Positions 2,441 through 60,426 of a DNA stretch of 64,000 bases are shown here, piece after piece. The DNA is from Candidatus Melainabacteria bacterium RIFCSPLOWO2_02_FULL_35_15 (GTDB lineage: Bacteria > Cyanobacteriota > Vampirovibrionia > 2-02-FULL-35-15). The stretch covers positions 80,966-144,965 of the forward strand of contig MFRN01000043.1 in assembly GCA_001784585.1 (NCBI GenBank), written 5' to 3'. The translations under genes were made by a program, and so were the position numbers. Below the pieces are notes generated by a model. It was not told the DNA's origin. It did no database searches and was given only the letters and a program-made list of their open reading frames with translations. Numbering within the stretch: the stretch's first letter is position 1; the number at the start of each line of letters is the position of its first letter.

Positions 2441-2945
2441 AAAAGAATTAATTGAATATATTAAATTAAAAGATAAACTTGAATATTTAAATAAAAATCT
2501 TACTTTGGAGAAAAATATAAAAAATCCTTTTGAAACTCTTATCTTTAACAAGGCAGAGACTAAAATCAAAAGAAAAGGAATTTCATATAAGTTCTGGTTT
2601 TTAGTATTAGTTGTATTATTTTTAACCACCAGTATTTTATTTAATAAAACAATTTCTTTAAAGATTGATCCTGTATTATATAAATTTATAAATCATTTAT
2701 CCACCCAGCTTAATAAGCCTTACGTGGTAACAATAGGAAATTTTGAGAGTTTTGATCTTGCAAAGAGTAGAGCTGTCGAGTTTTTGCCTAAACTCAGACA
2801 GATAAACATAAAACAGCTTCCTACCGGGAATTATACTTTTGAAATTGAAAAATGTGGTTCAAAAGAAAAAGCTTACTCTATATCAAAAGAATTTATACAG
2901 AATGGCTTTGAACCTGTGAATGTGCGTTACTTGCCAGGTCAATAA
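2424..2945 (+). CDS. SPOR-domain (peptidoglycan-binding) membrane-anchored protein
   Basis: One TM helix (FWFLVLVVLFLTTSILF). The C-terminal ~75 aa (YVVTIGNFESFDLAKSRAVEFLPKL..) resemble a SPOR domain. Confidence 0.45.
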   Translation: MTEKTKKELIEYIKLKDKLEYLNKNLTLEKNIKNPFETLIFNKAETKIKRKGISYKFWFLVLVVLFLTTSILFNKTISLKIDPVLYKFINHLSTQLNKPYVVTIGNFESFDLAKSRAVEFLPKLRQINIKQLPTGNYTFEIEKCGSKEKAYSISKEFIQNGFEPVNVRYLPGQ

Positions 2946-3684
2946 GTTTCATAAATTCTTCAAAGTTTAAACTGGCACCACCTACTAATCCGCCATCAAT
3001 ATCCGGGTATTTTATATGTTCGCCAAAATTATCTGACTTAACGCTGCCACCGTATAGAATTCTTACAGTTTCAGAAATTTGAGGGGTACTTTTTTCTTTT
3101 ATTGTACTTCTAATCATTTTTATTATTTTGTTTGCATCTTCACCACTACAGATTTTTCCTGTCCCGATTGCCCAGACAGGTTCATATGCAATAATTAGTT
3201 TTTCAATATCAGCACTGTTTAGATCTTTAATACCTTCAAGTACCTGATTTTTAACCTGGCTTTCAGCTTCGCCTTTTTCTCTGATTTTTAAATCTTCTCC
3301 TACACAAAACACTGGTGTAAGTCCAAATTTGAGTGCAGCTTTAATTTTTAGATTTACATCTTTATCACTTTCGTTAAAATATTGCCGTCTTTCGCTATGT
3401 CCGATTATCACCATTTCAATATGCAGGTCTTTTAACATTTTAGGAGAGACTTCCCCTGTATATGCTCCTTCTTCTTTATAGAACATATTTTGAGCACCTG
3501 TTTTGATATGAGGTGTATCTTTTAAGATATTGCTTATGGTTAAGAGATAAACAGATGGCGGACAAACAGTTATTTCAGCAGGTCGTTCAACTTTTATAGA
3601 ACTTTTTAATTTAAAGGTTAAATCCTGTGCATCAGCCAGACTTAAGTTCATTTTCCAGTTTCCAATGATTATTTTATTTCGCAT
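2893..3684 (-). CDS. tpiA: Triosephosphate isomerase
   Basis: IIGNWKMN motif near the N-terminus, catalytic IIGHSERR, and YGGSV near the C-terminus. Confidence 0.95.
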   Translation of the reverse strand: MRNKIIIGNWKMNLSLADAQDLTFKLKSSIKVERPAEITVCPPSVYLLTISNILKDTPHIKTGAQNMFYKEEGAYTGEVSPKMLKDLHIEMVIIGHSERRQYFNESDKDVNLKIKAALKFGLTPVFCVGEDLKIREKGEAESQVKNQVLEGIKDLNSADIEKLIIAYEPVWAIGTGKICSGEDANKIIKMIRSTIKEKSTPQISETVRILYGGSVKSDNFGEHIKYPDIDGGLVGGASLNFEEFMKLIDLASNAHSQVQSHSV

Positions 3685-4108: not shown

Positions 4109-5185
4109 TTAGTGGACAGTGCTTAATTCAAGTTGTTTATTTACAGCATTAAGCATTAAATCCGGAGTAACCTCCAGGCATTCAGGTGTTTTACAGGATT
4201 CTTTTCTCTTGTCAAATAAACAAGGCCTGCATTCCAGATTATCTGCATGTATAGCAAGGAATCTTGGATCCTCTGGTAATAGCTTTTTAGGATCAGTCGG
4301 TCCAAAAAATGCTACAAGTTTTTTCCCCAGTGCCACAGCTATATGCATCGGGGCAGAATCTACACAAACCAGCAGATCTGAAGAACTTATTAAAGCAGCA
4401 AGTTTTTCAATTGACAAATCAAATGAGCTAAAGTCAAAGAAATTTTTAGGCTTTGCAAAAAAAGAAAGTTTCTTGTGGATTTCAGCAATTGTTTCAGTAT
4501 CATCTTTTCCGCCAAGAAGAATTACAGTGTTATCATGATTTTCAAGTAGCTTCTCAATCAAGACAGCCCAATTTTTTGCTGCCCACCCCTTTAAAATATT
4601 TTTTTTAATACTCAGTTTACTTACTCCAGGATGAATAAATATTTTTTTTGCAAAATATCTTTCTTTTATTCTTGGATTTAAGGTTTCTTTTGCCCATTCG
4701 ATTAATGCAGGAGTCAGTTTGATTTCAGGCATCAGATACTTGCCATGAATTGTTTTTTTTATATCCGGCAACGCTGGCGTAAGTAATTCAGCAAACATAT
4801 TAGGTATATATTGAGTTGTATTTGGTTTTATGGGATCTGTTAAAAATAATTTGCTAAAAATCCCTTTATAAAAACCAATTTTGATTTCAGCATTACTTAA
4901 AAGAGCAACTATATTAGACTTATACGAGGAACCAGTTAAGATCAGGTATTTATAATATCGTGCTCTCAGTTCCTCTCTTAACTTAAAAATATTCAGATTT
5001 TTTTCTTTGAAGTCAAAAGCTCTAATTTTTCTGTATAAATGTGTCAGTTCCCCGATAATTACACTTCTTGGTTCACAAATTAAATCAATTTGATAATCGC
5101 TAAAATTTTCCTTAAAAATTTTTACTGTAGGTAAAAGGAGAATTTGATCCCCAATTCCTCCTGCATTGACAAATAAAGTCCTCAT
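4109..5185 (-). CDS. Glycosyltransferase family 9 (LPS heptosyltransferase-like)
   Basis: N-terminal LFVNAGGIGDQILLLP, the GT9 signature. The C-terminal region (..GPTDP..) is typical of RfaF/RfaC. The track ORF starts at a TTG at 5200. The internal ATG (MRTLFVNAGG..) at 5185 is the more plausible start. Confidence 0.8.
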   Translation of the reverse strand: MRTLFVNAGGIGDQILLLPTVKIFKENFSDYQIDLICEPRSVIIGELTHLYRKIRAFDFKEKNLNIFKLREELRARYYKYLILTGSSYKSNIVALLSNAEIKIGFYKGIFSKLFLTDPIKPNTTQYIPNMFAELLTPALPDIKKTIHGKYLMPEIKLTPALIEWAKETLNPRIKERYFAKKIFIHPGVSKLSIKKNILKGWAAKNWAVLIEKLLENHDNTVILLGGKDDTETIAEIHKKLSFFAKPKNFFDFSSFDLSIEKLAALISSSDLLVCVDSAPMHIAVALGKKLVAFFGPTDPKKLLPEDPRFLAIHADNLECRPCLFDKRKESCKTPECLEVTPDLMLNAVNKQLELSTVH

Positions 5186-5216
5186 AATGGTTCTAAACAA
5201 TTATTTTTATATTGTT

Positions 5217-5244
5217 GTAGAGACGTTATGCATAACGTCTCTAC
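5217..5244. promoter_or_regulatory. Perfect palindrome GTAGAGACGTT-ATGCAT-AACGTCTCTAC in the divergent region between the GT9 gene and the rplD operon promoter
   Basis: Read directly. 28-bp perfect inverted repeat immediately upstream of a TTGACA box. Confidence 0.45.
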
Positions 5245-23033: not shown

Positions 23034-24148
23034 AGATAGCTGTTGTTGTAGGTACCCGCCCTGAAGTTATTAAACTTGCTCCTGTATATCTTGAATTAAA
23101 AAAATCTAAAAAATTAAAACCAGTATTAATCAGCACTGGTCAACACAAAGAAATGGTAAATGAGATGTTTCAGTGGTTTGGTATTAAAGAAGATCACAAT
23201 TTAAAACTAATGCAAAAAAATCAATCTTTGCAATGCATTACTGCAAGAGTAATTGAAGCTACTTATAATTTATTTTCAAAAATTAAACCGGACTTAGTAA
23301 TGGTAGAAGGCGATACTGTATCAGTAATGGCAGCAGGCCTGGCTGCCTTTTATTTAAAGATTCCTTTAGCTCATGTAGAAGCAGGTTTAAGAACAAATAA
23401 TATTTATAATCCATTTCCTGAAGAAATGGCCAGGAGAATAGTCTCGCAGCTTACCAATATTCATTTTGCACCTACGAAGCAGGCTGTTATAAATTTGAGA
23501 AAAGAAAACATTAAAAAAAATGTTTATCTGGCAGGAAATACGGTGATTGATTCTTTGATGTATACGGTTAGGAAAATTAAAAATTCCGCAAAGACATTGC
23601 ATGCCACATCCCTGCGTCCTGATTTTAAAAAATATCGGATTATTCTGGTTACAATGCACCGCAGGGAAAATTTCGGAAAAGCCCATAAAAACATTGCAAA
23701 AACTTTAATTAAAATTTTAAATAAATTTCCGGATACTGCCATTCTTTTACCGCTTCATAAAAATCCAAAAGTCAGAGATGTAATAAGGCCTATTTTAAAA
23801 AATCATAAAAGAGTTTTTTTAACCGGGCCACTGGGTTATGTACCGTTTGTGTATGCTATGAAAAACAGCTATTTAATTTTGACTGATTCTGGTGGAGTAC
23901 AGGAAGAGGCTCCAAGTCTTGGAAAACCAGCTCTGGTGCTGCGTACCACTACTGAGCGTCCGGAGGGAATAAAAGCAGGTTCAGCAAAACTGGTAGGAAT
24001 AGATTCAAAAAAAATATTTAATGAAACTTCGAAACTTTTAACAGATAAAAAAGCCTACAATAAAATGTCAAAGATAAAAAATCCTTATGGGGACGGGAGA
24101 GCGAGTAAGAGAATTGTTAAAATATTAAGTAATTTATTTGTTTCTTAA
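23030..24148 (+). CDS. wecB: UDP-N-acetylglucosamine 2-epimerase (non-hydrolysing)
   Basis: [20 protein letters not shown]-terminus, ..HVEAGLRT.. and C-terminal [15 protein letters not shown] motifs. Confidence 0.9.
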
Positions 24149-25456
24149 CTTTTCATACTTTATCTGTCTCTTTAATTCTATTTCTACTTTTCTTTGAACT
24201 TCATTCAAAGCTTCCTCGGGTGTTTTATTTAGTCTCACAACAGACTCAAATGCTCTTTTTAATTCCCTTCTGTAAAACTCATAAAATGTAGCTTGAGGAA
24301 AAAATACAGCATCTTTTGATCTGGCAAGATCTATAAATGTCTTTATGTAAGGATGAGGGTGTTTTTTTATAAACTCATCTCTGTCTGAATAGACAAGAGG
24401 AGAAAATTTGTACTGTCCTATGCAGAGTTCTTCAATATTTTCCGGCTTCATAAGCCAGCTTATAAATTCAAATGCTTCTTTAGGATGTTTAGATCCCCTT
24501 GGAATTAGAATGCAGTCTTCATCTACGATAGTTATTAATCTTCCGTCTTTTCCTGGCATTGGAGCTACTCCATATTTTAGATGTGGAGCGAAACGAGGAA
24601 TAAAATTCCCTTCCCAAACACCGTTTATTTCCAGTGCAATTTTTTCTGTGTAAAAAGGGTTGTTTGGCCCCTGATAATTTCCAAACTCTTCCTGAAAAAT
24701 CTGAATATTTTTCCCGCCAAGTTTTTTTATAAAGCTTTGTGTCCACTTCCACGCTTCAATGTTTTTAGGATTATTTGCGGTAATGGCTTTCCCATCAGTT
24801 GCTCCCCATTTACCACCAAACAATACCCCGTAAAATCCAAATGCCCATGAAGGCCAGCTCGGCAAGAAACCTATTCGGATAATTTTTCCGTTTTTATCTT
24901 TTTTAGTTAATCTTTCTGAAAATATTTCTAATTCTTTAAGTGTTCTTGGCGGTATTTCTGGATTTAAACCAGATTCTTTAAACAAATTTTTATTCCAGTA
25001 AAGTGCCACAGCTGAAGGTGTAGTAGGCAGAGCCCATGTGTGTCCATAAAGGTTTAGCATCTTCCAATATACTGGTATAAAAAGATCTTTGCTAATCATG
25101 TTTTCTTTGCAGTAAGTATCCAGTGGAATTATTGCTCCACGCGATGCTAACTCTGGTACCCATGCTGCAATTGAACTTATGACATCGGGAGGTGTTCCGC
25201 CTATTATAGATAGCAAAGTTTTTTTTCTGGGCTCCGAAACAGTTAACATTTTTATTTTTATATCTGAATGTGTTTCGTTAAATTTATCTACAAGTTTTTC
25301 TATGGCCTTTCCTTCAAAGCCTGTCCAGTATTGCCAGTAAGTAATTTCTGTAATTTTTCCTCCGCCTGTAGGGGCAGGATAAATCCTGCCCTGCTTTTGG
25401 TTCACAATACAGCCTGTAATAATTAATGCTATTAGTAAAATCAGAAATTTCTTCAT
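24134..25456 (-). CDS. ABC transporter substrate-binding lipoprotein (carbohydrate-type family 1 solute-binding protein)
   Basis: Lipoprotein signal (LIALIITGC). ~440 aa with the family-1 extracellular solute-binding pattern. Confidence 0.75.
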   Translation of the reverse strand: MKKFLILLIALIITGCIVNQKQGRIYPAPTGGGKITEITYWQYWTGFEGKAIEKLVDKFNETHSDIKIKMLTVSEPRKKTLLSIIGGTPPDVISSIAAWVPELASRGAIIPLDTYCKENMISKDLFIPVYWKMLNLYGHTWALPTTPSAVALYWNKNLFKESGLNPEIPPRTLKELEIFSERLTKKDKNGKIIRIGFLPSWPSWAFGFYGVLFGGKWGATDGKAITANNPKNIEAWKWTQSFIKKLGGKNIQIFQEEFGNYQGPNNPFYTEKIALEINGVWEGNFIPRFAPHLKYGVAPMPGKDGRLITIVDEDCILIPRGSKHPKEAFEFISWLMKPENIEELCIGQYKFSPLVYSDRDEFIKKHPHPYIKTFIDLARSKDAVFFPQATFYEFYRRELKRAFESVVRLNKTPEEALNEVQRKVEIELKRQIKYEKLRNK

Positions 25457-25457
25457 T

Positions 25458-27041
25458 TTAAATATTAGTAAATGTATTTAATCTAAACTGCAGAGCTTCC
25501 AGAATATGTTCATCCCTAATGATATCTGAATTTCCTAAATCAGCAATTGTTCTTGCTACTTTTAAAACCCGATCAAAACTTCTGGCTGTTAGTGAAAAGG
25601 TTTTAATGGCTTCTCTGAGGATAAGTTCTCCGTTTTTGTCAGTCTTACAGAAATATTTTATTTCTTTTGAGGACAAGTGTGAATTTGATGGAATGTTTAA
25701 TTTCTTATATCTGTTTAACTGAATTTTTCTTACTTTTAAAACCCTTTCTTTAACACTTTCTGAATTTTCTGAGCTTTTAGTGCTCATTATTTCATTTTCA
25801 TTAAGACGTTTTACTTCTATTTGTAAATCTATTCTGTCTATTATGGGTCCTGAGATTTTGCCCTGATATTTTTTTATATTATTTAAATTACATTTGCATT
25901 TTTTAATATTATCTCCAAAATATCCGCATGGACACGGGTTACATGCAGCTATCAAAGTAAAATCACAGGGAAAAGTACAGCTTTTTCTGGAACGGGATAT
26001 TGTAACTTCTTTGGCTTCAATGGCTTGTCTTAAACTATCTAAAACCTGTTTTGGAAATTCCGTAAACTCATCCAAAAATAAAATTCCATTATGAGCCAGT
26101 GATATTTCTCCAGGCTGAGGAATTGATCCTCCTCCTATTAATCCTGCAGGGCTTATATTGTGATGCGGAGAGCGAAAAGGTCTCAGGGAAACTAAACTGT
26201 TTTCTTTATTTAATTTTCCTGCAGCAGAGTAAACTTGTGTGGTTTCAATTTTTTCTTCATAAGCCAGCGGTGGAAGTATTGTAGTAAGTCTCTGAGCCAG
26301 CATAGACTTCCCGCTGCCAGGCGGTCCGATCATTAGAACATGATGCTGTCCACCTGCAGAAATTTCCAAAGCTCTTTTAGCTAATGCCTGACCCTTTACA
26401 TCGCTAAAGTCAATGCTCAACTTGTTTATATTTTTTGTATCAGATAAAGTTGTATTTTTAAACGGGGAAATGTTTTTAAGATTATTTATTACATTTATAG
26501 CTTCTGCTAAATCAGATACAGGATAAATGTTAATCTCTTCTATTAATGATGCTTCAAGTGAATTATCTTTTGGAATAATTATGCCTTTTGCGCCTTTCTT
26601 TTTTGCAAGTATTACAAATGAAAGAACACCGTTTATTGGTCTGACCTTTCCGGAAAGTCCCAGTTCGCCAACCACATATAAACTTTCCAGATTTGTTTTA
26701 TTTATAACTTCAGGTTCATAACAGGTGAGTATTCCAATTGCAATTGGCAGATCATAAGTAGGCCCTGCTTTTTTTGTATCTGCAGGGGCAAGATTTACTA
26801 CAATTTTTTTACTTGGAAATTCCAACCCGCTTGATCTTATGGCAGATCTGACTCTTTCTCTTGATTCATTTATGGCTGTATCAGGAAGCCCTACTAAAAT
26901 AAAATTTGGCAGTCCACCTGCAATATCTGTTTCAATTTCTACAGCATATCCATTTACACCGATAAGTCCGCAAGAACTAATTTTTGCAAATGAGCTTTTT
27001 GTATCTGTTTCTATAATTTCAATTTCTTGCGTTGCAGTCAT
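25458..27041 (-). CDS. comM: YifB/ComM-family Mg-chelatase-like AAA+ ATPase
   Basis: Lon-like N-terminal domain. Walker A (GPPGSGKSM). MCM/ChlI-like C-terminal domain. Confidence 0.9.
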   Translation of the reverse strand: MTATQEIEIIETDTKSSFAKISSCGLIGVNGYAVEIETDIAGGLPNFILVGLPDTAINESRERVRSAIRSSGLEFPSKKIVVNLAPADTKKAGPTYDLPIAIGILTCYEPEVINKTNLESLYVVGELGLSGKVRPINGVLSFVILAKKKGAKGIIIPKDNSLEASLIEEINIYPVSDLAEAINVINNLKNISPFKNTTLSDTKNINKLSIDFSDVKGQALAKRALEISAGGQHHVLMIGPPGSGKSMLAQRLTTILPPLAYEEKIETTQVYSAAGKLNKENSLVSLRPFRSPHHNISPAGLIGGGSIPQPGEISLAHNGILFLDEFTEFPKQVLDSLRQAIEAKEVTISRSRKSCTFPCDFTLIAACNPCPCGYFGDNIKKCKCNLNNIKKYQGKISGPIIDRIDLQIEVKRLNENEIMSTKSSENSESVKERVLKVRKIQLNRYKKLNIPSNSHLSSKEIKYFCKTDKNGELILREAIKTFSLTARSFDRVLKVARTIADLGNSDIIRDEHILEALQFRLNTFTNI

Positions 27042-27073
27042 TTAGATTATTTAATCATCAAGGTGATTAAATT

Positions 27074-27143
27074 CATGTAACCTACGGTTACATGAAAAGA
27101 TTAAATTTTTCTCATATTCGTGAGATGTAACCTGGGGTTACAT
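27074..27143. promoter_or_regulatory. Two operator-like palindromes, ATGTAACC-N3-GGTTACAT, centred ~50 bp apart, upstream of comM
   Basis: catgtaacc-tac-ggttacatg at 27074-27094 and atgtaacc-tgg-ggttacat at 27125-27143, read directly. Confidence 0.4.
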
Positions 27144-27171
27144 GTAGAGACTTACCTCGGCAAGTCTCTAC
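27144..27171. repeat. GTAGAGACTT-N8-AAGTCTCTAC hairpin/palindrome at the 3' end of cdd
   Basis: Perfect 10-bp arms. Shares the GTAGAGAC arm sequence with the palindromes at 5217, 32887 and 33036. Confidence 0.4.
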
Positions 27172-28049
27172 AATTTAAACGCCCATGGCAAAAGCTCTTC
27201 GATAGTCGTTATGCCCATATTGTCAATAATAATTTTTGTTTTTGGATCACAATAATCCGATATTAACTGAAGTGCATCACCAGGTGGATATTTTACAAAT
27301 GGAAATGCAAATATAATAGCTTTAATCTTATTCTTTAAATTTTTTATCGAGCCGCTTGCCGTGTATGCTCCAAAGACAGCTTTTAACGGTTCTGCAGAGC
27401 ATCCAAATGAGCTGCTGTCTAAAGTACATGCTGAATATTTTTCATTTGTATTTTCTGTAAGCATTGCAATACCATATTTTTCTTTTGAATATGGTACATG
27501 AGCATGGTGAAGAGCAGCTCTGGCTAAATCCAAAGTATCCATTTCTTCTATGGTTAAAGTTTTCAGTTTATTTTGATCAAGCAATGGATGTGGTAACAAT
27601 TCTTTTGGTGTAAAAGTCCTTTCATGTCCGTCAAGTAAAATAATTCCCTTTGTATCTAGTTTTTGAGAAATAACTTCTCTGCATGCACCGCAGGGAGTCA
27701 AAAAATTAAGCTCTGCTTTATCTGTCTGTTTTTCAAGTGCTTTTGGAGCACTGATCGCAAGTGCAATAAATTTTTTATAGCCGGCTGAAATACCATTAAA
27801 GATTGCATTCCTTTCAGCACAGATACTTTGTGAAACAGTTGGTTCTACATTTGTACCTGAGAAAATTTTTGGTTTTTTGCTCTGGTCAATACCCACCACG
27901 ACAGCTCCTACAGGAAAATGGCTGTATGGAGACCACGAATTTGCTGATACCTCTTTTGCTAAGTATTTTAAGTTATCAAATGACAAATTTGAGCTATTTA
28001 ATATCTCTTCGATTTCTTTGTATGAATTTATAATTCCCTCTGGTGTCAT
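27168..28049 (-). CDS. cdd: Cytidine deaminase (two-domain, Cdd type)
   Basis: Zinc-binding CAERNAI and PCGACRE motifs. ~293 aa, like the homodimeric two-domain Cdd. Confidence 0.8.
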   Translation of the reverse strand: MTPEGIINSYKEIEEILNSSNLSFDNLKYLAKEVSANSWSPYSHFPVGAVVVGIDQSKKPKIFSGTNVEPTVSQSICAERNAIFNGISAGYKKFIALAISAPKALEKQTDKAELNFLTPCGACREVISQKLDTKGIILLDGHERTFTPKELLPHPLLDQNKLKTLTIEEMDTLDLARAALHHAHVPYSKEKYGIAMLTENTNEKYSACTLDSSSFGCSAEPLKAVFGAYTASGSIKNLKNKIKAIIFAFPFVKYPPGDALQLISDYCDPKTKIIIDNMGITTIEELLPWAFKL

Positions 28050-30098: not shown

Positions 30099-31455
30099 TT
30101 TGTGCTGTTGTTAAACTGTGCCTTATCACATCTAAAATTTTCTTAGCCTGAAAAATTTCAATTCTGCTGTTTTGTATTTTTGTATCTATATCAGGAATTA
30201 CAACCTGCTCAAAACCTAATTTTATACATTCTTTTATCCTGTTTTCAATTTGATTTACCTGCCTAATTTCACCCGTTAAACCTATTTCCCCAATAAAAAC
30301 TGTTTTTTTAGACGGGATTACATCCTGCTTGCAGCTAACTATTGACATGGCTATTGATAAATCAAGAGCAGGTTCACAGCTGCTTAATCCACCTACAAGA
30401 TTTACAAATAAATCATGCTTTGAAAAATTAAACCCAACCCTTCTCTCTAAAATTGCAATAATCTGAAGAACCCTATTATAATCAAGTCCGTTAACAACTC
30501 TTCGCGGGGTAGTATACGCCGTCCCGCCAACCAGTGCCTGAACTTCTGCAATAATTGTTTTGCTTCCTTCTACTATAGCTGAATAAGTGCTTCCAGGCAC
30601 CGGGTCTTTATTTTGAGACATAAAAAGGAAGCTGGGATTTGATATAGGTTTTAACCCGGTATCTTTCATTTCAAAAACTGAAATTTCATTCGTACAGCCA
30701 TATCGGTTTTTTGTAGCACGCAAAATCCTGAAATTATGAAATTTTTCTCCTTCAAAATATAAGACTGTATCTACTATGTGTTCTAAAACTTTTGGCCCGG
30801 CAATTAGCCCTTCTTTGTTTACATGCCCGACTAAAATTGTGGTTATGTTTTTGCTTTTTGCAAGATGTAAAATTTTATTTGCGCATTCTCTGACCTGGCT
30901 TACATTTCCGGCTGATGATTCAAGCTCAGGATGATATATGGCCTGGATAGAATCAATGATTAAAAATTCCGGCTTTTCTTTTTCAATTAAATTTATTATG
31001 GTTTCAAGATTATTTTCTGCAAGTAAAAGTAAATTTTCACTGTCCAAATTTAATCTCTGGGCACGGAGTTTTATCTGGTAAATAGATTCTTCGGCGGTAA
31101 TGTAAGCTACTTTTAATTTGTTTGACAAATAATCTGCTACCTGTAATAAAATCGTAGATTTTCCAATGCCAGGTTCTCCTGCAAGCAAGACTAAAGATCC
31201 ATGCACAAAACCACCGCCAAGAACGTTATCCAGCTCTTTATCAAATGATTTAATTCTTTGAACGCTTTGAACGTCTATAGTAGCAGCAGAGCTAAATAAA
31301 TTTTCTGAAGAGTTTAAATTTGATTTTGGCAATTTCTTATAAACTACTTCTTCTATTAAGCTGCTCCATGAATTACATTCAGGACATTTACCAATATAAC
31401 TTGGTGAAATATATCCGCATTCCTGACATGTCCATTTTGATGATATTTTAGGCAT
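30064..31455 (-). CDS. radA: DNA repair protein RadA/Sms
   Basis: N-terminal C4 zinc finger (CQECGYISPSYIGKCPECNSW). RecA-like ATPase (GEPGIGKST). Lon-like C-terminal domain. Confidence 0.95.
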   Translation of the reverse strand: MPKISSKWTCQECGYISPSYIGKCPECNSWSSLIEEVVYKKLPKSNLNSSENLFSSAATIDVQSVQRIKSFDKELDNVLGGGFVHGSLVLLAGEPGIGKSTILLQVADYLSNKLKVAYITAEESIYQIKLRAQRLNLDSENLLLLAENNLETIINLIEKEKPEFLIIDSIQAIYHPELESSAGNVSQVRECANKILHLAKSKNITTILVGHVNKEGLIAGPKVLEHIVDTVLYFEGEKFHNFRILRATKNRYGCTNEISVFEMKDTGLKPISNPSFLFMSQNKDPVPGSTYSAIVEGSKTIIAEVQALVGGTAYTTPRRVVNGLDYNRVLQIIAILERRVGFNFSKHDLFVNLVGGLSSCEPALDLSIAMSIVSCKQDVIPSKKTVFIGEIGLTGEIRQVNQIENRIKECIKLGFEQVVIPDIDTKIQNSRIEIFQAKKILDVIRHSLTTAQTISKPKHNCCP

Positions 31456-32986
31456 GATGATTTTGTGTAGAGGCGTAGTTGGTTAGATAATTGATTAATG
31501 TTCTTACTCCAACGCCTGTCGGTCCTTTTGGTCCATATTCATTTTCTTTATCGATCCATGAAGGACCAGCTATATCTATGTGAACCCAGGGAATATCAGA
31601 AACAAATTTTTCTATAAACACAGCACCATTTTGTGCACCTGATTTTCCTTTTGAACCAGTGTTTATCATATCGGCAATATCGCTCTTTATTTTTTCCCTA
31701 TCTTCATCATATAAAGGTAACTGCCACATTCTTTCACCAGCTTCATTTCCTGCTTTAATAATTTTATCTGCAAGTTTTTGATTATTTGTCATAACTCCGT
31801 TTGCAGTATCGCCTAAAGCTACTACACATGCGCCGGTTAATGTAGCCAGATCAATAATTTCATCCGGCTTTTGTTTTGCTGCATAAGATACTGCATCTGC
31901 CAGTGTTACACGTCCTTCCGCATCAGTGTTTAAAACCTCAATTGTTTTTCCGTTCATGGCACGGATTACATCGCCTGGTCTGTACGCTTTTCCGCTTGGC
32001 ATATTTTCAGCAGCAGCTACTATCATAGTAATTGCTACATCAGGCTGAAGTTCTTTCATAGCACTCATTGTGCTTATTGTTGCAGCAGAACCTGACATAT
32101 CGTCTTTCATGGTTTCCATGGAGTTGGCTGGCTTAAGTGAAAGACCACCTGAGTCAAATGTAATTCCTTTTCCTACAATTACAACATGTTTCTTAGGTTT
32201 TCTTTTTGGCGTATATTTTATTTCAATAAATTTTGGCGGTTCATCACTTCCCTGAGCTACAGCTAAAAATGCCCCCATTCCAAGTTTTTTACATGCAGCA
32301 CTATCTAAAACTTTTATTTTTAATTTATTTTCTTTTGCTACTTTTCTGGCTATATTTGCAATCTTTGTGGGAGTCATGGTTATAGCTGATTCAGCAACCA
32401 TGTCACGGGCAAGGGCCTGTGCTCTTGCTACAATATTTCCTCTTTTTATTCCAGATTCAATATCTTTTAGCTTTGACTTATCAGTTTCAGCAATGATTAA
32501 AGTTTTAATTTCCATTTTAGGTTCTTTTTTATCTTTTGATTTAAGTCTGTCAAACTCATAAAGCGCAAGCTGAGAAACCTCAGTTATAGCCTGTGCTGCA
32601 TTTTTTATATCAATTTTTCCTGCTCCTGCACCATGTAAAATGGTGCAGACTGTTTTTGCTTTTTCTTTTTTAGCACATCTTATAGCAGACGCAGATATCT
32701 TCCTTATACTATTTAAATCAAATTTTTCTTTTTCACCCAATCCTATTACAATAACTTTCTTTGCTGGGATCAAACCATTTGTTCTTATTACCAGAGTAGT
32801 CCCGGCTTTCCCTTTGAAATTTTCTTCCTTTATTATTTTTTTTATTAATCCATTCAACGCAAAATCGACTGCTCCTGTCCCTCCCCATAGAGACGTGCTA
32901 CGACGCGTCTCTACTTCGAATAAATTTAAAATCAATACATCACATGAAATGTTTTCCAGCTTTTGATTTTTTAGAGTTATCTTCAT
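31448..32986 (-). CDS. pepA: Leucyl aminopeptidase (M17 family)
   Basis: NTDAEGRL motif (VLNTDAEGRVTLADAV). ~500 aa M17 architecture. Confidence 0.9.
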   Translation of the reverse strand: MKITLKNQKLENISCDVLILNLFEVETRRSTSLWGGTGAVDFALNGLIKKIIKEENFKGKAGTTLVIRTNGLIPAKKVIVIGLGEKEKFDLNSIRKISASAIRCAKKEKAKTVCTILHGAGAGKIDIKNAAQAITEVSQLALYEFDRLKSKDKKEPKMEIKTLIIAETDKSKLKDIESGIKRGNIVARAQALARDMVAESAITMTPTKIANIARKVAKENKLKIKVLDSAACKKLGMGAFLAVAQGSDEPPKFIEIKYTPKRKPKKHVVIVGKGITFDSGGLSLKPANSMETMKDDMSGSAATISTMSAMKELQPDVAITMIVAAAENMPSGKAYRPGDVIRAMNGKTIEVLNTDAEGRVTLADAVSYAAKQKPDEIIDLATLTGACVVALGDTANGVMTNNQKLADKIIKAGNEAGERMWQLPLYDEDREKIKSDIADMINTGSKGKSGAQNGAVFIEKFVSDIPWVHIDIAGPSWIDKENEYGPKGPTGVGVRTLINYLTNYASTQNHHA

Positions 32987-33035
32987 TTGTTTCGTATTAT
33001 CCTTTCTTAAAAATCTGTAAAACTAATTTTAGCGT

Positions 33036-33059
33036 GGAGACGTTGCATGCAACGTCTCC
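33036..33059. promoter_or_regulatory. Perfect 24-bp palindrome GGAGACGTTGCATGCAACGTCTCC, followed by a half-site repeat at 33066-33080, in the pepA/5S divergent region
   Basis: Read directly. The core GAGACGTT-N6-AACGTCTC matches the palindrome at 5217-5244. Confidence 0.45.
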
Positions 33060-33103
33060 ATATCTTGCATGCAACGTCTTTACAATCTTCTATGTGTAAT
33101 ATA

Positions 33104-33138: not shown

Positions 33139-33257
33139 TCCTTGGTGAGGATGCGGCTGGATCACACTCGTTCCCATTCCGAACACGACAGTAAAGACAG
33201 CTAGCAGTGACAATATTTAGATCGCAAGGTCTTGAGAAGATAACCATTCGCCAGGGA
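33139..33257 (+). rRNA. rrf: 5S ribosomal RNA (orphan copy, no adjacent 16S/23S)
   Basis: ~119 nt. The terminal helix I pairs (tccttggtg with cgccaggga). Internal conserved CCCATTCCGAACACG..GTAAAG loop-C region. Own promoter upstream and an intrinsic terminator downstream. Confidence 0.75.
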
Positions 33258-33261
33258 TTTA

Positions 33262-33300
33262 TAAAAAACCCTCCGTTAATAGTGGAGGGTTTTTTATTTT
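33262..33300. terminator. Rho-independent terminator (CCCTCC-gttaatagtg-GGAGGG, then TTTTTTATTTT). Bidirectional: A-run upstream, T-run downstream
   Basis: Read directly. Lies between the 5S 3' end and the 3' end of the minus-strand gene 33321-33917. Confidence 0.7.
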
Positions 33301-54176: not shown

Positions 54177-54228
54177 GTTACAGACGCCTCGCCGGGGCGT
54201 CTGTACAAAGTGGAAAGCAGTTTGCCTC

Positions 54229-58203: not shown

Positions 58204-58405
58204 AAAACGACATTAACTTATTTAAAAAACCACTTTTTGGTTTTAAGTGAGATTCTTCTGAAAGCATCTCTCCACAATGATGACAGCTTCCACAAATAAA
58301 TTTTGATTCAATGAGTGTCTGACAGCGAGGGCATTTTTGTTCTACAAACGTCTCGCTGACTTCAAAGCTACAAGTAGGACAGTTAATAGTTTTGCATTTG
58401 CTCAT
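58187..58405 (-). CDS. Small double zinc-ribbon protein, translationally coupled to feoB
   Basis: 72 aa with CPTC..CPRC..CGSC..HHC. Its start overlaps the feoB stop by 4 nt. Confidence 0.5.
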   Translation of the reverse strand: MSKCKTINCPTCSFEVSETFVEQKCPRCQTLIESKFICGSCHHCGEMLSEESHLKPKSGFLNKLMSFFNPPK

Positions 58406-60426
58406 GCACCTAATATTCTAGCAAGAATACTCCCTACACTAATAGCTAAAACCATTGAAGAAAGCCATATTCCGGCAGCAATCTTCCAGTTTTGTTCTTT
58501 AGCCATCACAGCTACAGTAGCAATACATGGAACAAATAGTGTTAAAACTATGCTGGCTACTGTAACCTGAGCTGCTGTCATATGAAGTTCAGTTAAACCA
58601 AATGCCCCGAAATCTCTTCTTACCATTCCTAAAATAAATGATACAGAGACTTCTTCAGGCAGATGTAATAGATTTTTTGATACTGGTCTAAAAATATCAA
58701 TTACCCTGTTTAATAAACCTGTCACCTGCATAAGAGAAACTATAAATGCAGCTATAAAAAAGGCAGGCACTGCTTCAGTCATAAAAAACATTATTTTTGT
58801 TCTTGCTTTGTAAAAAACATTTGAAATTCTTGGAAACCTTAATGGCGGAAGATCTATAAGAAGAGGTGTTGCTTTGCCCGGAAGAAACTTATTCATAATG
58901 AACCCGGTTAAAACTAAAACCATACTTATAATTGAGAGCCAGATTAACCAGAATGCTATTCCACCTGATTTAGCAAGCAAAGACTGGATGACACCCAGCT
59001 GAGCAGAACACGGTATTGCAAAGCCTAAAATAGTTATTGCAATTATTTTTTCTCTTTTTGTCGTTAAGAGTCTGGTGGTAACTGTAGCCATGGTTACGCA
59101 GCCAAGCCCGAGTATTAATGGAATTATGGCGCGACCATTCATTCCGATTCTTGTTAACAAGCCATCTACTAAAACAGCAAGTCGTGGCAAATAACCTGTA
59201 TCTTCTAAAATTGCCAGTGCAGTATAAAATGCAATAACCAGCGGTAATAACAAGCCTAACAGATAGGTAACTGTAAGAGTCAGAACACCGTATTTTCCTG
59301 CAAGTATTGTGCCGACTGCACTTAAAAAATTATTTTTGAGCTGAGAGCTCTGAGGTCGGAGTTCTAAACTCTGCTCTTCTATATAGTCACTTGGTCCAAA
59401 AAAGAACTCTTTCTTTTCTGTCTGATATTGTTTTAATTTATTATATTTTTCTTTTTCAGCCATAAAGCCTTTAGGAAAGCTGTATAGGTTATTATTTGCA
59501 AGAACTTCTACAGGAAAAAATTGCCCGGTAATCTCTCTTACCACAGGTTCATAATAAGCATTCATTATCTTTTTTTCAGTAAAGCTTATTAAATCACTCC
59601 CAATCCAGATTCCAAGAAATTGATATAAAAACAAAAATCCTATAAACAGTGCAATGATCGAACCCCAGACAGGCTCAGTCAGAACATTTGAAATCTTTGT
59701 TAAAAATCTTTCTTTTTTGTTTTTTATGCTGATTACATTTGAAATTATTTCATTTACATTTTTCCGTCTTTGGCTGTAAATCTCATTTCTTTTATTTCTT
59801 GGTTTTATTTTATGTCTTTCTGAAATTACTAAATCTCCTTCCAGAAGTAATAATGCTTCTGCCTGATTTGTTACCTCTGGAAGTAACTCTGTAAGCTCTC
59901 TTTGTAAAACAGGATCCACACTTCCTGTTTTTGCTTTTCCGCTCAGCAATGCATTTTTAACATCTGCCATGCCTTCGCCGGTTGTTGCAACAGTAAAATA
60001 AACAGGAACTTCAAGTATTTCACTTAGCTTTTTAATATTTATTTCCAAACCAATTTCCCTGGCTTCGTCCATTTGATTAACAGCTACAATTAATGGTTTT
60101 CCCATGTCAATTAATTGTTTAGTAAGAAACAAATCTCTCTCAAGGCTTATTGCAGATACTACATTTAATATTTCATCTGAATATAAAATTACATCCCGAG
60201 CTACTTTTTCTTCATCATTAAAGCTGCTAACACCATATATACCCGGAGTGTCTTTTACAATAAAATCTTTGTTTAGTAAAGCAGAAGTTATTTCCACTGT
60301 TGTACCAGGATAATTACTTACATCTACATAAACACTGCTTAGATAATGAAAAAAAACAGACTTACCTACATTTGGATTTCCTACGAGAACTATATGTTTT
60401 TGTGTTGCCTTTGTTAGATCAATCAT
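58402..60426 (-). CDS. feoB: Ferrous iron transporter FeoB
   Basis: N-terminal G-domain (LVGNPNVGKS, DTPG, NxxD-like). Polytopic C-terminal permease. 674 aa. Confidence 0.95.
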   Translation of the reverse strand: MIDLTKATQKHIVLVGNPNVGKSVFFHYLSSVYVDVSNYPGTTVEITSALLNKDFIVKDTPGIYGVSSFNDEEKVARDVILYSDEILNVVSAISLERDLFLTKQLIDMGKPLIVAVNQMDEAREIGLEINIKKLSEILEVPVYFTVATTGEGMADVKNALLSGKAKTGSVDPVLQRELTELLPEVTNQAEALLLLEGDLVISERHKIKPRNKRNEIYSQRRKNVNEIISNVISIKNKKERFLTKISNVLTEPVWGSIIALFIGFLFLYQFLGIWIGSDLISFTEKKIMNAYYEPVVREITGQFFPVEVLANNNLYSFPKGFMAEKEKYNKLKQYQTEKKEFFFGPSDYIEEQSLELRPQSSQLKNNFLSAVGTILAGKYGVLTLTVTYLLGLLLPLVIAFYTALAILEDTGYLPRLAVLVDGLLTRIGMNGRAIIPLILGLGCVTMATVTTRLLTTKREKIIAITILGFAIPCSAQLGVIQSLLAKSGGIAFWLIWLSIISMVLVLTGFIMNKFLPGKATPLLIDLPPLRFPRISNVFYKARTKIMFFMTEAVPAFFIAAFIVSLMQVTGLLNRVIDIFRPVSKNLLHLPEEVSVSFILGMVRRDFGAFGLTELHMTAAQVTVASIVLTLFVPCIATVAVMAKEQNWKIAAGIWLSSMVLAISVGSILARILGA

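Follow-up and report, generated by a model that had tools for sequence, protein, structure and literature searches.

Paired palindromes upstream of comM are putative operators of a small clade-specific regulon in Melainabacteria

Two near-identical palindromes upstream of comM in a Melainabacteria genome are probably operators of a transcriptional regulator. They lie between the genes cdd and comM in a 64 kb stretch of contig MFRN01000043.1 from Candidatus Melainabacteria bacterium RIFCSPLOWO2_02_FULL_35_15 (hereafter the window, with positions counted from its first letter). Judged from sequence comparison, the sites and their promoter constitute a conserved candidate cis-regulatory module, with a previously undescribed motif and a small regulon in an uncultured lineage. 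A sequence-only reading of this DNA had pointed out two near-identical palindromes about 50 bp apart, the first centred about 43 bp upstream of the comM ATG, and a hairpin over the cdd stop codon; all three are present. The features of the locus are:

25458-27041, minus strand: comM/yifB, 527 amino acids, a Mg-chelatase-like AAA+ ATPase (Pfam Mg_chelatase/ChlI) and the gene presumably controlled by the sites
27049-27057, minus strand: extended -10 of the comM promoter, TGATTAAAT, 18 nt after the proximal site and 7 nt before the ATG, with TGnTnnAAT invariant in 10 species
27076-27092, no strand: putative proximal operator (P), core TGTAACCTACGGTTACA, invariant in 10 orthologous comM upstream regions
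27093-27125, plus strand, pointing away from comM: 33-nt inter-site element composed of GATTAAAT (27099-27106), TTTT and CTCATATTCGTGA (27111-27123)
27126-27142, no strand: putative distal operator (D), TGTAACCTGGGGTTACA, with 8-bp arms at 27125-27143
27144-27171, no strand: hairpin GTAGAGACTT-N8-AAGTCTCTAC with a 10/11-bp stem, over the TAG stop codon (27168-27170) of cdd
27168-28049, minus strand: cdd, a two-domain cytidine deaminase of 293 amino acids (Pfam dCMP_cyt_deam_1 and _2), the upstream same-strand neighbour of comM

On the minus strand, cdd is followed by a 126-bp spacer and comM, and the elements are arranged in the order cdd stop codon with hairpin, distal site, proximal site and comM. 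The hairpin had been placed directly after the sites; in the direction of transcription it precedes both palindromes. The proximal palindrome possesses perfect 11-bp arms (TTCATGTAACC/GGTTACATGAA) spanning 27072-27096, and its centre, at 27084, and the A of the comM start codon, at 27041, are 43 nt apart. The start-to-start spacing of the two sites is 50 bp. Using the pattern TGTAACCNNNGGTTACA (14 specified bases, up to 2 mismatches), exactly two copies of TGTAACC-N3-GGTTACA are found in 64 kb. By chance 0.16 copies would be expected, and 0 of 100 shuffles gave two or more. One palindrome pair in 64 kb, located 18 nt from a -10, represents a low copy number and is not the pattern of a dispersed repeat resembling repetitive extragenic palindromes (REP) or miniature inverted-repeat transposable elements (MITE).

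The palindromes are conserved at comM while their surroundings diverge. We fetched comM loci from the same species (L001, L002; L-numbers are labels of fetched loci and contigs compared with the window) and from species whose ComM proteins are 87%, 82%, 74%, 68% and 63% identical. Ten comM upstream regions were aligned, comprising the window, four relatives down to 68% ComM identity and five metagenome contigs. The best named ComM homologues are YifB proteins from Candidatus Melainabacteria metagenome-assembled genomes (MAGs), and the gene order efp, cdd, comM, solute-binding protein gene is kept in the fetched relatives. Both palindromes are present 49-51 bp apart in all ten aligned regions (ComM 68-100% identical). 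Invariant alignment columns are essentially TGTAAC...GTTACA twice and TGnTnnAAT, with diverging flanks. The TGTAAC/GTTACA arms of the distal site are unchanged in 10 of 10 loci, its inner arm positions 7/11 carrying one mismatch in some relatives, and the site centre differs by species (CCA, GTA, TAC, TAA, TTT and others). In L003, where two inserted small opposite-strand genes separate cdd from the sites, the latter have remained beside comM and the hairpin beside the cdd stop codon. The sites are therefore associated with comM itself and not with its junction with cdd. The relative with 63% identity (L302) has lost the distal site and retains a half-degenerate proximal one, with TGcTTAAAT-N7-ATG persisting, and because of this loss the motif is, on present alignments, limited to one clade. 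No additional sites were found in the 64 kb window or in the flanks (ca. 20 kb) of five relatives.

Similar site pairs are found at a limited set of other genes. A metagenome scan with a strict paired-site pattern identified 51 loci, 39 of which have 30-39% G+C and Melainabacteria-like genes; nearly all of these 39 adjoin gene starts. The genes next to the pairs are:

smp, about 16 loci: small two-helix membrane proteins of 68-91 amino acids with the consensus MITEEQKY..L.N.GFAFLAPLGSI.FQ
comM, 7 loci in the scan, and 4 orthologous loci fetched through ComM
small Lys-rich secreted peptides, 5 loci
Zn-dependent dehydrogenase (adh), 3 loci
ORF6N-domain proteins, 3-5 loci: matches to PHROG anti-repressor families
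single cases: a GIY-YIG protein, an IS200-like Y1 transposase resembling REP-associated tyrosine transposases (RAYT-like), a methyltransferase and others

The smp proteins have 18 database relatives, all domain-less, the sole named one being from Melainabacteria. Several pairs can occur in one genome. In GCA_016201905.1 one stands upstream of comM (L006) and another separates ftsY from smp (L298); in GCA_964602915.1 there are three, which precede comM (L301), an ORF6N gene (L148) and smp (L158). A dedicated comM regulator site had been called plausible; pairs also precede several unrelated genes, at three loci in GCA_964602915.1. In the window, the 20-kb flanks fetched through proteins and other low-GC contigs, one extra pair outside the targeted ones was found (at a second smp gene, L267) and no isolated perfect or one-mismatch sites. 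Since just this one untargeted pair and no isolated sites were seen in the DNA examined, the element is best described as low-copy and promoter-associated, a putative small regulon motif that is neither comM-only nor a high-copy repeat. A genome-collection scan with a relaxed pattern (TGTAAC-N5-GTTAC...GTAAC-N5-GTTACA) returned few Melainabacteria loci among the matches listed and mostly a Nocardioides/Propionibacteriales hairpin repeat, which swamped the scan so that a genome-wide regulon could not be drawn unbiased. A single-site scan of viral contigs gave chance-level matches only, among the matches listed.

The motif has the consensus aTGTAACC-S-W-S-GGTTACAt, a 17-bp sequence with a 7-3-7 layout and half-site centres 10 bp apart. 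In 77 unique sites the 3-bp centre shows a mere S-W-S preference and the half-sites are inverted in all 77. All 14 specified bases match in 76 of 102 sites, a figure to be read with the fact that the search pattern itself demanded at least one near-perfect site per pair. Sites occur almost exclusively as pairs. In 45 unique pairs the spacing is 30-32 bp (n = 13), 39 bp (n = 1) or 48-51 bp (n = 28), clustering close to 3, 4 and 5 helical turns.

Several further observations concern these scans. The Nocardioides/Propionibacteriales loci (L127-L246) contain a long-hairpin repeat of about 70-72 bp with termini TGTAACGCACCGTTAC...GTAACGGTGCGTTACA in several copies per 8-kb block, which is a REP/MITE-like family unrelated to the Melainabacteria sites. 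Seven metagenome contigs with 56-59% G+C (L248, L260, L265, L269, L283, L292, L294) carry tandem 39-bp units TGTAACC(A/C)C(T/C)GGTTACAAGATTCACTCGGCTGGCGAGGC with the same palindrome core, and a phage-like contig with 39% G+C (L257:5733-5860) has a 45-bp unit repeated three times in tandem, in which TGTAACCTTTGGTTACA is joined by a TGTCACCTTTGGTTACA variant; this array contains the same palindrome and looks iteron-like. The neighbourhood ftsY, site pair, smp recurs in L298 (8968-12415) and L299 (6275-7649). Downstream of smp lie an 80-amino acid open reading frame (ORF) and RNase J in L298 and L217 (6201-7754), and a gene for a hydrophobic peptide of 37-39 amino acids in L299, L300 and L003. 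GCA_964602915.1 (contigs CAZRTB0100000xx) is labelled 'uncultured Gammaproteobacteria bacterium'; with 31-34% G+C, efp-cdd-comM synteny and a ComM 68% identical to that of the window, it is probably a mislabelled Melainabacteria MAG.

The sites stand at a constant distance from the promoter. At comM, the proximal site is always 18 nt from the extended -10 (TGnTTAAAT), gap-free in the alignment, and the conserved extended -10 stands 6-9 nt before the start codon in 8 of the 9 aligned comM loci where it is seen. Downstream of the site, TG occupies +19/+20 and the hexamer +22 to +27 at comM and in most of the smp promoters checked; the promoter of the RAYT-like gene and one of an ORF6N gene match the comM geometry within 1 nt. 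The spacer between site and -10 is unrelated in sequence between gene families and constant in length. Start codons follow 6-9 nt past the -10 at comM and most smp genes. The comM gene lacks both a Shine-Dalgarno sequence and a -35 box, and its mRNA is probably leaderless because there is no Shine-Dalgarno sequence and the -10 lies 7 nt before the ATG, which gives a predicted transcription start site (TSS). TGnTATAAT stands right before the ATG at other window genes too, and the sequence suggests that leaderless mRNAs are common in this organism. Minus-strand genes at 58402-60426, 2893-3684 and 24134-25456 have a consensus-like, extended -10 merely 5-8 nt before the start and no Shine-Dalgarno sequence.

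The 33-nt segment between the sites is itself directional. In the window it contains a -10-like CATATT at 27113-27118, 20 nt after the proximal site, which corresponds to the geometry of the comM promoter. The element GATTAAAT-TTTT-CTCATATTCGTGAAA is recognisable in most of 25 unique modules of about 50 bp, and about 19 of the 25 score at least 18/26 to the consensus vs at most 16 on the reverse strand; A2 and T6 of its hexamer are conserved, 20 nt after the upstream site. The element may represent a second promoter starting at the downstream site. Depending on the species, it is found in either orientation relative to comM or smp: it points away from comM in the window, L005, L264 and L284 and towards it in L003, L006, L250, L262 and L293. 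L284 and L003 share the same arrangement of smp, sites and comM and have opposite element orientations, and independent assemblies of one species show a single orientation (window/L001/L002; L003/L004). The window element points to where relatives carry smp and where only the hairpin and the 3' end of cdd are present here, and it is probably a remnant, possibly the former promoter of a divergent gene since lost. Rare inversions between the mutually inverted palindromes are the simplest account of the flips. We looked for inversion breakpoints in the distribution of mismatches over half-sites; the mismatches look independent and indicate no breakpoint.

We propose that one sequence-specific transcription factor of two-fold symmetry, i.e. 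a dimer, would bind the palindromes and control the comM promoter together with a small clade-specific regulon. Each 17-bp site would take one dimer, and two dimers on roughly the same face of the DNA, mainly about 31 or 50 bp apart, would act together. The sequence-only reading had likewise proposed that the paired sites act jointly as protein-binding operators, and the invariant arms with a variable centre, the pairing at about 31 or about 50 bp and the fixed distance to the -10 all point in this direction. The site centre is predicted to lie near -42, with the partner near -73 or -92, of a promoter lacking a -35. With no -35 to contact, the promoter would rely on the proximal dimer in its place, assisted by the upstream dimer, as in promoters of the CRP/FNR/NtcA type and lambda PRM. 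We consider this class II/III-type activation the most likely mode, with moderate confidence, because the distance from site to -10 is strictly kept across spacers of unrelated sequence, there is no -35, the comM hexamer TTAAAT is weak and the partner would lie near -73/-92. Protein binding, the TSS with its leaderless mRNA, the sign of regulation and the signal are predictions of this scheme.

A number of observations weigh against activation by such a factor or limit how far it can be generalized. TSS positions are derived from promoter sequence, and the site-to-(-10) distance is shifted by +7 nt in L148 and by -2 to -3 nt at adh and L249. Lys-rich genes have sites about 31 nt further upstream of a complete -35/-10; these may serve a divergent ORF6N gene instead. 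Near-perfect palindromes, obligatory pairing and the near-consensus smp -10 (TGaTATATT) are at least as typical of repressors as of activators, and the odd 17-bp layout misfits the 16-bp sites of the CRP/FNR family. The target list is biased by the strict paired-site pattern of the scan. No regulator gene was found beside the sites or among the 23 window ORFs scanned: Pfam, NCBIfam and PHROGs searches of the flanking proteins and these ORFs detected no transcription factor except the ORF6N/anti-repressor-like targets and one OmpR-type gene, located in L155 at 5 kb from a site pair and the only one seen. The ORF6N/anti-repressor-like gene, which itself carries sites, is a weak lead for the regulator, and an OmpR/RpaB-type protein is another weak one, from the identity of the half-site with the HLR1/WalR hexamer. 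The identity of comM cannot settle the sign of control, because comM is activated via CRP-S/Sxy in gamma-proteobacteria (PMC1635313) and repressed under LexA control in Caulobacter and other alpha-proteobacteria (PMC3323433, PMC6473078).

It is possible, if doubtful, that the sites instead bind a cooperative repressor of the LexA, cI or XRE type governing an SOS-like or stress regulon, with dimers occluding the -35/UP region of constitutive extended -10 promoters until an inducing signal such as DNA damage releases them. The palindromes are perfect, would be of high affinity and are nearly always paired, their 7-3-7, 17-bp layout is that of lambda operators, and smp promoters with a near-consensus TGnTATATT should fire unaided. 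The gene set has an SOS- or prophage-like character (comM, ORF6N anti-repressor-like, GIY-YIG nuclease, IS200-like Y1 transposase), and SOS division inhibitors include small membrane proteins of which smp is reminiscent. LexA regulation of comM in alpha-proteobacteria (PMC3323433, PMC6473078) and the multiple boxes per promoter frequent in SOS networks (PMC8565304) fit as well. However, the motif matches neither the LexA motifs quoted in PMC8565304 nor any others familiar to us, and recA, lexA, uvr and polymerase genes are absent among about 40 target loci. LexA of E. coli and of B. subtilis, used as tblastn queries, had no match in 340 kb of clade DNA, which is weak evidence given the small sample. 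Simple occlusion needs no strict site-to-(-10) distance over unrelated spacers, and a site centred at -42 leaves both the -10 and +1 free. A literature search on the motif and on Melainabacteria together with LexA found nothing relevant, the sole TGTAACC/GGTTACA match being mutated Acinetobacter UmuDAb box oligonucleotides.

Explanations that do without a DNA-binding regulator fare less well. We consider it extremely improbable that the palindromes function in RNA, as hairpins of a transcript spanning cdd and comM that serve as terminator, attenuator, processing site or stabiliser. The minus-strand intergenic RNA does fold into a row of hairpins (-55.6 kcal/mol, z = -7.4), but this strong z-score follows trivially from the palindromes. 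Arm sequences are conserved and do not covary (the single-base variants C7 to T and G11 to A or T disrupt pairing on one strand or on both), and the sites are found upstream of genes on either strand, in divergent promoters and after unrelated genes (ftsY, gltX, hisB), which together argues against a role in RNA. No T-run follows the palindromes and no terminator-like sites are found in 26900-27300. Very unlikely, too, is a mobile or recombinogenic repeat, whether as a REP/MITE-like cassette or as the inverted repeats that bound an invertible promoter switch. Each site is both an inverted and a direct repeat of the other, the 33-nt segment occurs in both orientations among close species (L284 vs L003; window/L005/L264 vs L003/L006/L250/L262), inter-site sequences are alike at different loci, and a RAYT-like Y1 transposase gene has a pair upstream. 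Against such a repeat stand the low copy number, the orthologous position across 68-100% ComM identity, the fixed distances to the -10 and start codons, and the single orientation in assemblies of the same species (window/L001/L002; L003/L004); most loci lack an adjacent recombinase and no invertase was seen at them. To our knowledge, no known invertase synapse could form between crossover sites as close as 50 bp. Hairpin- or template-switch inversions between short inverted repeats are known in chloroplast DNA, and by this analogy the flips appear better explained as rare events of that kind than by invertase action. A bolder combination, which we regard as unlikely, would see the module as a cassette in which two identical palindromic operators flank a 33-nt directional promoter-like element flipped by evolution, possibly also by the cell, between comM and smp. 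It would be run by an ORF6N/anti-repressor-like autoregulator or by a head-to-head RpaB-like regulator of a new kind, and would define a Melainabacteria-specific recombination/stress regulon. BirA, ParB/parS, an ECF-sigma -35 box and integron attC were rejected by eye on a comparison of their motifs and layouts.

The hairpin is not part of the operator: it keeps its place at the end of cdd and is one member of a dispersed family. Hairpins of the type GTAGAGAC-N12-GTCTCTAC are also located at 5217-5244, 32887-32914 and 33034-33061, with a variant at 54179-54205. The GTAGAGAC family, with a conserved 5' GTAG, thus has 4-5 copies in the window, and 12 were counted in about 400 kb of clade DNA. 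At the cdd stop codon the hairpin is kept in L003 and L005, where L005 shows a compensatory change of GAGAC/GTCTC to GGGAC/GTCCC. It has no T-run, and in the absence of terminator-like sites in its surroundings it was not scored as an intrinsic terminator. By sequence it is a REP-like dispersed hairpin unrelated to the operators, and it possibly acts as an mRNA 3' stabiliser. The family resembles the REP/RAYT system in being a short, GC-richer hairpin starting with GTAG whose dispersed copies often follow stop codons, in its compensatory stem changes and in the presence of a RAYT-like Y1 transposase in the clade. Unlike REP elements, some copies are in frame within coding regions (pepA, RAYT-like gene), which recalls the in-frame palindromic elements of Rickettsia. 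The copy at 32887-32914 lies in frame inside pepA (31448-32986, minus strand) and encodes VETRRSTSL, with VESRHGVTL in the L003 pepA; this PepA insert amounts to 4 extra residues and is absent in L005 and L006 PepA. Another in-frame copy, at L285:590-621 in a RAYT-like transposase gene, encodes VETCRGMSL. A GTAGAGAC(G/T)-type copy at 33034-33079 is nested in a longer repeat with a 15-bp stem just upstream of the 5S rRNA gene, and the copy at 5217 is 17 bp from the start of ORF 4109-5200, in the divergent region before rplD.

The window has a G+C content of 35% and encodes housekeeping functions including ribosomal proteins, SecY, BamA/OmpH/LpxD, EF-P, AccB, RadA, PepA and enolase. Rfam matches in the window are tRNAs and 5S rRNA only. 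The 5S rRNA gene (33141-33256) is isolated, 23S and 16S rRNA being absent from the 64 kb, and a strong terminator-like hairpin follows it at 33261-33297.

Melainabacteria are a non-photosynthetic sister lineage of Cyanobacteria with few cultured members, and we know of no work on their gene regulation. The motif aTGTAACC-SWS-GGTTACAt with its promoter architecture (site 18 nt before TGnTAnnnT, leaderless start) is provided here for this lineage, along with an initial set of targets, among them comM, a small membrane protein specific to the lineage and an anti-repressor-like gene, and with genomes in which to search for the regulator. ComM, the branch-migration helicase of natural transformation, would be linked to a control circuit outside Proteobacteria, and the flips in orientation provide a small system in which inversion between palindromic operators could be tested. 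Binding sites of a regulator are a common type of element, and the advance stays incremental unless something out of the ordinary emerges about the regulator or the flipping.

The module shares traits with several known systems and can be assigned to none of them. The LexA SOS boxes, known as 17 lineage-specific motifs, are likewise palindromic and often present in at least two copies per promoter, their accessory targets are typically anti-repressor, nuclease, transposase and small-membrane-protein genes, and comM is a target elsewhere (PMC3323433, PMC6473078). In contrast to LexA boxes, the sites match none of the motifs in PMC8565304, lexA, recA and uvrA are not among the loci found, and the operator would be centred at -42 instead of covering the -10 or +1. 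The lambda cI/Cro operators OR1-OR2 at PRM share the 17-bp 7-3-7 pseudo-palindrome, with a half-site TATCACC compared with TGTAACC here, as well as the occupation of paired sites and a dimer at -42 that activates PRM. Lambda operators are, however, spaced 23-24 bp apart as against about 31 or 50 bp in the Melainabacteria pairs, the searches detected no cI-like or S24 gene, and the targets here form a putative chromosomal regulon and not a prophage immunity region.

Promoters of the NtcA/CRP/FNR class II-III type are similar in carrying a palindrome directly upstream of a -35-less promoter, with its centre at about -42, and class I/III promoters of CRP/FNR in having a partner site near -73 or -92. 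The NtcA promoter layout is GTA-N8-TAC-N22-TAN3T; here, too, 22 nt separate the promoter-proximal TAC from the -10 hexamer, and the half-site begins TGTA. The sites differ in being 17 bp long with a central base pair, with GTA-N9-TAC in the 77 unique sites vs a symmetric 16-bp core of TGTGA-N6-TCACA or GTA-N8-TAC, and in being nearly always paired, their positions being counted from predicted TSSs. They also have no link to a CRP-family gene. The distance to the conserved extended -10 fits class II on these same predicted starts, with L148, L249 and adh as exceptions. Finally, the half-site GTTACAT/TGTAAC is, we take it, the hexamer of RpaB HLR1 and WalR (OmpR family), whose half-sites are also about 10-11 bp apart; the arrangement is different in that those hexamers form direct repeats, whereas the half-sites of the Melainabacteria motif are inverted repeats throughout.

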